This document shows, piece by piece, positions 55,459 to 56,545 of a DNA stretch of 64,000 bases. Numbering within the stretch: the stretch's first letter is position 1; each line of letters opens with the position of its first letter. Under the pieces are notes generated by a model. That model ran no database searches. It was not told the origin of the DNA and worked only from the letters and a program-made list of their open reading frames with translations. The translations under genes and the position numbers were made by a program. Origin of the DNA: Escherichia coli. GTDB lineage: Bacteria; Pseudomonadota; Gammaproteobacteria; Enterobacterales; Enterobacteriaceae. The stretch lies in NCBI RefSeq assembly GCF_036507355.1, contig NZ_AP027877.1; one strand, given 5' to 3'.

Positions 55459-55484
55459 TATTCCTTGTTGGTAATGACTCCAAC

Positions 55485-55988
55485 TTATTGATAGTGTTTT
55501 ATGTTCAGATAATGCCCGATGACTTTGTCATGCAGCTCCACCGATTTTGAGAACGACAGCGACTTCCGTCCCAGCCGTGCCAGGTGCTGCCTCAGATTCA
55601 GGTTATGCCGCTCAATTCGCTGCGTATATCGCTTGCTGATTACGTGCAGCTTTCCCTTCAGGCGGGATTCATACAGCGGCCAGCCATCCGTCATCCATAT
55701 CACCACGTCAAAGGGTGACAGCAGGCTCATAAGACGCCCCAGCGTCGCCATCGTGCGTTCACCGAATACGTGCGCAACAACCGTCTTCCGGAGCCTGTCA
55801 TACGCGTAAAACAGCCAGCGCTGGCGCGATTTAGCCCCGACATAGCCCCACTGTTCGTCCATTTCCGCGCAGACGATGACGTCACTGCCCGGCTGTATGC
55901 GCGAGGTTACCGACTGCGGCCTGAGTTTTTTAAGTGACGTAAAATCGTGTTGAGGCCAACGCCCATAATGCGGGCTGTTGCCCGGCAT
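55485..55988 (-). CDS. insB: IS1 InsB (transposase C-terminal part; expressed as InsAB' by -1 frameshift)
   Basis: 167-aa ORF matching IS1 InsB ([24 protein letters not shown]...). Confidence 0.93.
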
Positions 55989-56182
55989 CCAACGCCATTC
56001 ATGGCCATATCAATGATTTTCTGGTGCGTACCGGGTTGAGAAGCGGTGTAAGTGAACTGCAGTTGCCATGTTTTACGGCAGTGAGAGCAGAGATAGCGCT
56101 GATGTCCGGCGGTGCTTTTGCCGTTACGCACCACCCCGTCAGTAGCTGAACAGGAGGGACAGCTGATAGAAACAGAAGCCAC
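55907..56182 (-). CDS. insA: IS1 InsA (transposition repressor / transposase N-terminal part)
   Basis: 91-aa ORF with zinc-finger Cys (CPSCS...CSHC). Confidence 0.93.
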
Positions 56183-56545
56183 TGGAGCACCTCAAAAACA
56201 CCATCATACACTAAATCAGTAAGTTGGCAGCATCACCTTCCTTGTTATACACATTACGAAAAATAAGACATTTAAGATCATCAAAAGAGGAAAGTAAATG
56301 TATTGCGTATAAAGGGATAGATTAAATTTATTAAAATTCACGCAGGGAATAATTTATAAAAATATATCATTACAACATATATATTAATTTTATGTTTATT
56401 TCGCAGCCAAACAGGATAAACATCAGTCAGGACAAAGACGTAAAATTTAAGATGAAAGAATATCTGCCGCTTTGATAATCCCAAAGAGCAAAAGCATCCG
56501 ACAGCGAAGTGCCGTTATGTTCTGTGAAAGTGGAGAAGGTAACCG

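Follow-up and report, generated by a model that had tools for sequence, protein, structure and literature searches.

Introduction

IS1 is classically polar: in the insertions described in gal and lac, the element lies between the promoter and the genes, it reportedly carries an internal transcriptional terminator (Hubner, Iida and Arber 1987, listed in PMC12095673), and translation of its insB frame depends on a rare frameshift. The promoter in its terminal inverted repeat IRL is weak and autorepressed by InsA (Machida 1989 and Zerbib 1990, from the same list). The other closely related systems are the IS1 hybrid promoters (Prentki et al. 1986, cited in PMC9330008; afaA in ST131, PMC8764528; acrEF and blaTEM), in which an outward –35-like hexamer at the IS1 end faces a co-oriented downstream gene. 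This hexamer makes a hybrid promoter only with a –10 box that is correctly spaced (PMC8764528). In ST131, co-oriented IS1 copies upstream of genes were associated with an increase in afaA transcription of ~7 log2, through a hybrid promoter, and with a decrease for osmB, and ugd was unchanged (PMC8764528).

According to a 2025 preprint, YfgH is a glycine-zipper lipoprotein of the outer membrane, and E. coli cells from which it has been deleted are sensitive to SDS-EDTA and have a permeable outer membrane (bioRxiv 10.64898/2025.12.22.696046). The yfgH gene displays low basal expression and strong induction on depletion of LpxC, LptD or BamA, and defects in outer-membrane biogenesis are rescued when more YfgH is supplied (bioRxiv 10.64898/2025.12.22.696046).

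Here, we analysed an IS1 inserted directly in front of yfgH in a 64-kb stretch of E. coli DNA, which we call the window. As in the hybrid promoters, an outward –35-like hexamer faces a co-oriented gene; in contrast to them, the window has no –10 box at 16–18 bp, and this position is taken up by the yfgH start codon. As in the gal and lac insertions, the IS1 lies between promoter and genes, a likeness of geometry only, and unlike them it sits in a leader and ribosome-binding region and not within an upstream cistron.

Results

A complete IS1 of the IS1A type in front of yfgH

The window contains a single IS, and its remainder is collinear with K-12, which makes an origin from Shigella seem less probable. 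The element (Table 1) has the 768-bp length, the ~23-bp imperfect terminal repeats and the GGT(G/A)ATG start of IS1, overlapping insA and insB′ frames in relative phase –1 with an A6C motif, and a target duplication of 9 bp, for which 8 bp is occasionally found in this family. On the plus strand it runs from GGTAATGACTCCAACTTATTGAT at 55470 to ...ATCAGTAAGTTGGCAGCATCACC at 56237, and a repeat finder showed that the IRL and IRR arms are complementary at 18 of 23 positions, as in canonical imperfect IS1 ends. The slippery motif AAAAAAC is located at 55931..55925, where a –1 shift yields a 232-aa InsAB′ with no internal stops. Both the insA and the insB parts match the NCBIfam profile NF033558 (transpos_IS1, IS1 family transposase), the insB part with 145.6 bits (cutoff 100) and the insA part with 91.3 bits over profile positions 1–81; the Zn-binding domain NF050000 was matched with 41 bits (cutoff 28). 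An earlier reading of this DNA, made from the sequence only, had described a complete IS1 with intact inverted repeats, insA and insB, and this description is borne out.

IS1A of E. coli K-12 (NC_000913.3, 19796..20563) shares 766 of 768 nucleotides with the window IS1, along with the 768-bp length, the 23-bp IRL and IRR, InsA, the A6C site, the InsAB′ layout and the 9-bp duplication. The window copy differs from it in chromosomal location and in two nucleotides (55752 and 55794), one of which produces the InsB S65R substitution. An annotated IS1A-family element of E. coli USMARC-51688 (NZ_CP104112.1) is identical to the window IS1 at 768/768 positions, and this identical DNA carries a "programmed frameshift" annotation in NZ_CP104112.1. 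With all sequence requirements intact, the window IS1 is a complete copy that looks functional and active.

Table 1. Features of the yfgH locus and IS1 insertions in the yfgG–yfgH spacer. Features are placed by window coordinates; insertions are placed by how far the IS1 end lies from the yfgH GTG, and the individual 8–9-bp duplication of each is given under Sequence.
Feature	Position	Strand or orientation	Sequence	Remarks
yfgI (DUF5384)	54385..54924	–		second gene of the yfgHI unit; intact, 179 aa
yfgH	54940..55458	–		glycine-zipper outer-membrane lipoprotein; intact, 172 aa from GTG 55458
yfgH-proximal copy of 9-bp target-site duplication	55461..55469		+ TTCCTTGTT, minus AACAAGGAA	contains the yfgH Shine-Dalgarno AAGGA
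IS1 (IS1A-type)	55470..56237	–		768 bp exactly; transposase genes point toward yfgH
IRR, 23-nt terminal inverted repeat	55470..55492		GGTAATGACTCCAACTTATTGAT	carries outward –35-like TTGGAG (minus strand, 55483..55478)
insB frame	55485..55988	–		167 aa, single substitution vs K-12 InsB1 (S65R)
insA	55907..56182	–		91 aa, identical to K-12 InsA
IRL, 23-nt terminal inverted repeat	56215..56237			overlapped by insA promoter-like site CTGCCA-16-TATGAT (minus, 56230..56203)
Distal copy of 9-bp target-site duplication	56238..56246		TTCCTTGTT	still joined to native upstream DNA
Displaced native yfgG–yfgH spacer	56247..56545	–		25–30% G+C; must hold native yfgH promoter and regulatory DNA
IS1 insertion	+6	co-oriented	CACTATTCC	two genomes
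IS1 insertion	+11	co-oriented	TTCCTTGTT	window
IS1 insertion	+12	co-oriented	TCCTTGTTA	
IS1 insertion	+25	co-oriented	CATTACGAA	
IS1 insertion	+40	co-oriented	GACATTTAA	
IS1 insertion	+65	co-oriented	AGTAAATG	8 bp
IS1 insertion	+203	co-oriented	GACAAAGA	8 bp
IS1 insertion	+28	opposite	TACGAAAAT	
IS1 insertion	+141	opposite	CATTACAAC	
IS1 insertion	+173	opposite	TTCGCAGCC	

The insertion arose by simple transposition

Exactly two copies of the 9-mer TTCCTTGTT are present in the 64-kb window, 777 nt apart, each directly abutting one IS1 end. The presence of a 9-mer twice in the window is unremarkable alone (14 of 100 shuffles), whereas two copies placed exactly at both ends of the IS are the specific signature of IS1; the perfect 9-bp direct repeat claimed earlier for this locus is indeed there. 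We reconstructed the empty site as a 408-nt sequence in which the two flanks are joined by a single repeat copy. It aligns ungapped and end to end in 5386 of the 5426 complete E. coli genomes. Both flanks are collinear with K-12 MG1655 (guaA–yfgI–yfgH on one side and yfgG–pdeF–ppx... on the other), with no associated deletion or inversion. Because the empty site is restored ungapped and the flanks are collinear with K-12, the event was a simple IS1 transposition into an E. coli-type chromosome and not a rearrangement.

The exact IS1–yfgH junction was absent from the 5426 complete E. coli genomes and from the GTDB representative genomes, and IS1 is multicopy, with a median of ~10 matching places per E. 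coli genome. Both facts would fit an assembly artefact, in which a repeat copy was misplaced by the assembler. However, assemblers do not invent target duplications, and the perfect 9-bp duplication at both ends, the exact restoration of the empty site and the collinearity of both flanks with K-12 are at odds with a misplaced copy. In addition, contig DAFKWY010000101.1 (1..3527) of the draft assembly GCA_021425525.1 is 100% identical over 3.5 kb to window positions 51940..55466, and its end falls within the yfgH-proximal repeat copy, a break that is typical of short-read assemblies at a multicopy IS. The position of this break indicates that an independently assembled genome would carry the same IS1 insertion. 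Misplacement by the assembler is scarcely credible in view of these observations, and an assembly chimera is very unlikely.

A second draft assembly breaks 2 nt further in, and its genes beyond yfgI differ.

The sequence-only reading had also called the transposition fairly recent. This is plausible, given that the junction was found in none of the 5426 complete genomes and that yfgH and yfgI are intact, but a 9-bp repeat is a poor clock.

IS1 separates yfgH from its native upstream DNA

The minus-strand sequence of the junction is IS1...GTCATTACC/AACAAGGAA-TA-GTG-ATG-AAA or, over a longer stretch, ...AAGTTGGAGTCATTACC / AACAAGGAA TA GTG ATG AAA TTT.... Between the duplicated 9 bp and the start codon there are thus 2 nt if the annotated GTG is taken and 5 nt if the ATG is taken; for the IS1 end, the corresponding distances are 11 and 14 nt. 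These figures replace the 3 bp given before for the distance to the start codon. The insertion does fall within the yfgH ribosome-binding region, AAGGA lies inside the duplication and is kept in the yfgH-proximal copy at its native spacing, and insA and insB are co-oriented with yfgH–yfgI, all on the minus strand, as the same reading had it. The insB stop codon is located 27 nt upstream of the yfgH GTG.

RefSeq annotation of yfgH orthologues starts at the GTG (172 aa). The ATG at 55455 appears to be the likelier start, since its spacing from the AAGGA core is better (6 nt vs 3 nt for the GTG); read from this ATG, the protein begins with a typical lipoprotein signal peptide (MKFKK...LAGC). YfgH and YfgI show two and one amino acid differences from K-12, respectively, and because both genes are intact, their function may be retained.

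Native DNA upstream of –11 has been pushed 777 bp (768 + 9) away from yfgH. Only an mRNA that begins upstream of the Shine-Dalgarno can be translated into YfgH; the native promoter has therefore of necessity been displaced, as the sequence-only reading had postulated. A consensus scan of the displaced spacer found no strong sigma-70 match on the yfgH strand. A regulatory or otherwise structured RNA in the displaced DNA, leader or spacer, was rejected, as Rfam gave no match at E ≤ 1 across 54000..57500. The genes yfgH, yfgG and yfgI are unmentioned in the start-site mapping supplements of PMC6131387 and PMC4681348.

Transcripts must cross IS1 to reach yfgH

The hexamers at 15–19 nt from the IRR TTGGAG are AATAGT, ATAGTG, TAGTGA, AGTGAT and GTGATG, which agree with the –10 consensus at 0–4 of 6 positions. 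The –10 of a hybrid promoter would occupy 55462..55453, where the spacer and the start codon lie, past the Shine-Dalgarno. Transcription from such a promoter would begin within the coding sequence and cannot yield a translatable yfgH mRNA. An IS-generated hybrid promoter combines an outward –35 with a –10 at 16–18 bp and a start upstream of the ribosome-binding site, and this combination is absent here: an IS1/flank hybrid promoter from the IRR –35 is ruled out by geometry and by the hexamer scores. A strong complete promoter directed outward near the IRR end was rejected as well, none scoring at least 9/12; the best, ATGACA-19-GAACAT at 55531..55501 (8/12, with a 19-bp spacer), was the one further weak candidate in a relaxed scan. 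In the consensus scan of 55300–56800, the sole yfgH-strand promoter-like site of at least 9/12 was CTGCCA-16-TATGAT in IRL, at a position that we take to be that of the IS1 insA promoter.

Because the hybrid promoter is unusable, yfgH transcripts have to traverse IS1, starting either at the IRL promoter or at a point upstream of it. The sequence-only reading had left expression to either read-through or an outward promoter; read-through is the sole survivor, and the IS1/flank hybrid promoter has been eliminated. In the absence of a hybrid promoter, unchanged or decreased expression is to be expected for yfgH.

Sequestration of the ribosome-binding site by IS1 in the read-through RNA was considered and rejected: in the minimum free energy (MFE) fold, the IS1 CACUAU pairs with AUAGUG beside the ATG, and the fold is no better than that of shuffles (z = –0.85). 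A hairpin at the junction of target DNA and IRR (GTTGG-8 nt-CCAAC, 55467..55484) was flagged as terminator-like on the plus strand; its minus-strand complement, immediately 5′ of the yfgH Shine-Dalgarno, is weak and of doubtful significance.

We consider it probable that the insertion is a promoter-displacing, polar mutation that leaves yfgHI with low constitutive expression and with envelope-stress induction lost or blunted, the effect on expression being one that we infer. IS1 transposed into the AT-rich spacer before yfgH, with a staggered cut resulting in the 9-bp duplication. Neither the coding sequences nor the yfgH Shine-Dalgarno were touched, but yfgH–yfgI were physically cut off from their own promoter and regulatory DNA. 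Transcripts can now reach yfgH in two ways, from the weak, InsA-repressed IRL promoter or by entry from upstream DNA, and either route would cross ~750 nt of IS1, mostly the insB frame, which is poorly translated and known for termination. The predicted outcome is low, unregulated yfgHI expression, with outer-membrane stress induction abolished or blunted; it is mainly this induction that should go when yfgH is separated from its native control region. The weak internal candidate near IRR (8/12) counts against this polar model, as do the intact state of yfgH and yfgI and the lack of a strong sigma-70 match on the yfgH strand of the displaced spacer.

IS1 has inserted repeatedly near yfgH

About 60 E. 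coli genomes carry IS1 in the yfgH–pdeF region. The 310-bp yfgG–yfgH spacer has received 10 distinct IS1 events in E. coli, including that of the window (Table 1). The others, at least 9 in number, are independent of it because none uses the TTCCTTGTT target. IS1 copies upstream of yfgH in GZEC065 (NZ_CP048025.1), USMARC-51688 (NZ_CP104112.1), S171-1, SCPM-O-B-9504 and DETEC-P169 share the element, the spacer and the orientation with the window, and the target is offset from that of the window by 1 bp in GZEC065 (TCCTTGTTA) and by 5 bp in USMARC-51688 (CACTATTCC). Most of the Shine-Dalgarno is destroyed by the +6 insertion, in contrast to the window insertion, which keeps AAGGA. More IS1 copies are found in the yfgG–pdeF spacer, and IS1 lies inside yfgH itself in E. 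coli C and in eight pig ETEC genomes, which would support the view that loss of yfgH is tolerated.

In E. coli TUM9812 (extracted locus 1696..3395), the +6 IS1 lacks the corresponding duplication on its right-hand side, and IS5 comes directly after it, which suggests a secondary IS-mediated rearrangement or deletion of the spacer and yfgG.

Of the 10 spacer events, seven lie no more than 65 bp from the yfgH start in this spacer of 310 bp (binomial P = 0.0012), and the G+C content of the spacer is uniformly low (0.10–0.32) over the first ~217 bp. Six of the seven events near the start are co-oriented with yfgH. This is not significant (P = 0.125; P = 0.34 for the whole spacer), and an orientation bias was accordingly rejected as a sign of selection.

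This distribution bears on an unlikely alternative to a polar mutation, namely that IS1 activates yfgHI or makes its expression constitutive, and that this was selected. Steady transcription would come from the promoter in IRL or from an internal promoter near IRR, in a unit that is normally almost silent and whose AT-rich spacer is probably repressed. The clustering at the yfgH start, in DNA of similar G+C content, would fit such selection, as would the co-orientation of six of the seven events, which could reflect a useful, selected read-through and to that extent speaks against low expression. Preservation of the Shine-Dalgarno and start codon in the window, the low basal expression of yfgH, the rescue of outer-membrane biogenesis defects by extra YfgH and the rise in transcription of ~7 log2 when IS1 stands before afaA point the same way. 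On the other hand, the orientation bias fails to reach significance, the window has neither a usable hybrid promoter nor a strong internal outward promoter, and the IRL promoter is weak and autorepressed, as is established in IS1 biology. Damage to the Shine-Dalgarno by the +6 insertion and the presence of IS1 inside yfgH in other lineages fit a tolerated loss better than activation.

A neutral insertion is given slightly less weight still. It would reflect the target preference of IS1 for an AT-rich spacer, with yfgHI expression being dispensable in this lineage and the phenotype not meaningfully altered. The spacer, with 10–32% G+C in its first ~217 bp, has the composition for it, a preference of IS1 for AT-rich targets is attributed to Zerbib 1985 in PMC9330008, and many independent IS1 events, in both orientations, are spread across the yfgH–yfgG–pdeF spacers, with yfgH itself interrupted in some lineages. 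The SDS-EDTA sensitivity and permeability defects of yfgH deletion argue against neutrality, as lost induction should be costly under stress. In mechanism this explanation overlaps with the promoter-displacing, polar mutation that we favour, the fitness effect being the sole difference.

The simplest reading of the recurrence is an IS1 hot spot in AT-rich DNA before a gene whose absence E. coli tolerates; selection acting on the expression of yfgHI is conceivable but has no support. It is doubtful, though conceivable, that the 65 bp before yfgH are a site of parallel evolution, at which unrelated lineages, that of the window among them, repeatedly fix mostly co-oriented IS1 copies because uncoupling the stress-induced yfgHI operon from its native control, by silencing or by steady read-through, would be advantageous in some niches.

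Neighbouring loci

At window positions 44333..49742, a 5.4-kb segment that is absent from K-12 takes the place of the yfgJ region between der and xseA. Its three large ORFs (726, 321 and 460 aa) resemble secreted or surface proteins, perhaps those of a sinH/sinI/ratA-type inverse-autotransporter islet. At 25980..26861, beside sseA, extra diverged copies (87–90% identity) of the K-12 ryfA/timP-timR small-RNA/toxin segment suggest a tandem duplication of this locus. In E. coli SCZE5, F9792, SCPM-O-B-9504 and B7A, guaA does not adjoin yfgI, and phage- or defence-like genes (DUF2514, DUF262 and an ATP-binding protein) occupy the yfgI–guaA junction; the second draft assembly mentioned above has a KAP NTPase there. 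Foreign DNA thus seems to integrate at this junction; the window keeps the K-12 arrangement.

Discussion

The element, the mechanism (a 9-bp duplication, promoter displacement and possible polarity) and the class of consequence are already known, and the event is a standard textbook IS1 insertion. The exact insertion site is new relative to the complete E. coli genomes, yet it is one of many neighbouring IS1 events. The insertion is a clean, datable lineage marker and has little import beyond strain annotation. It predicts a regulatory phenotype, in which YfgH would no longer be induced by envelope stress; a stabilising role of this lipoprotein in the outer membrane was reported recently. Its wider value lies in the yfgG–yfgH spacer as a recurrent IS1 target, with insertions concentrated at the yfgH start; together, these spacer insertions might be used as a naturally occurring set of alleles for studies of yfgHI regulation and of IS1 target choice.
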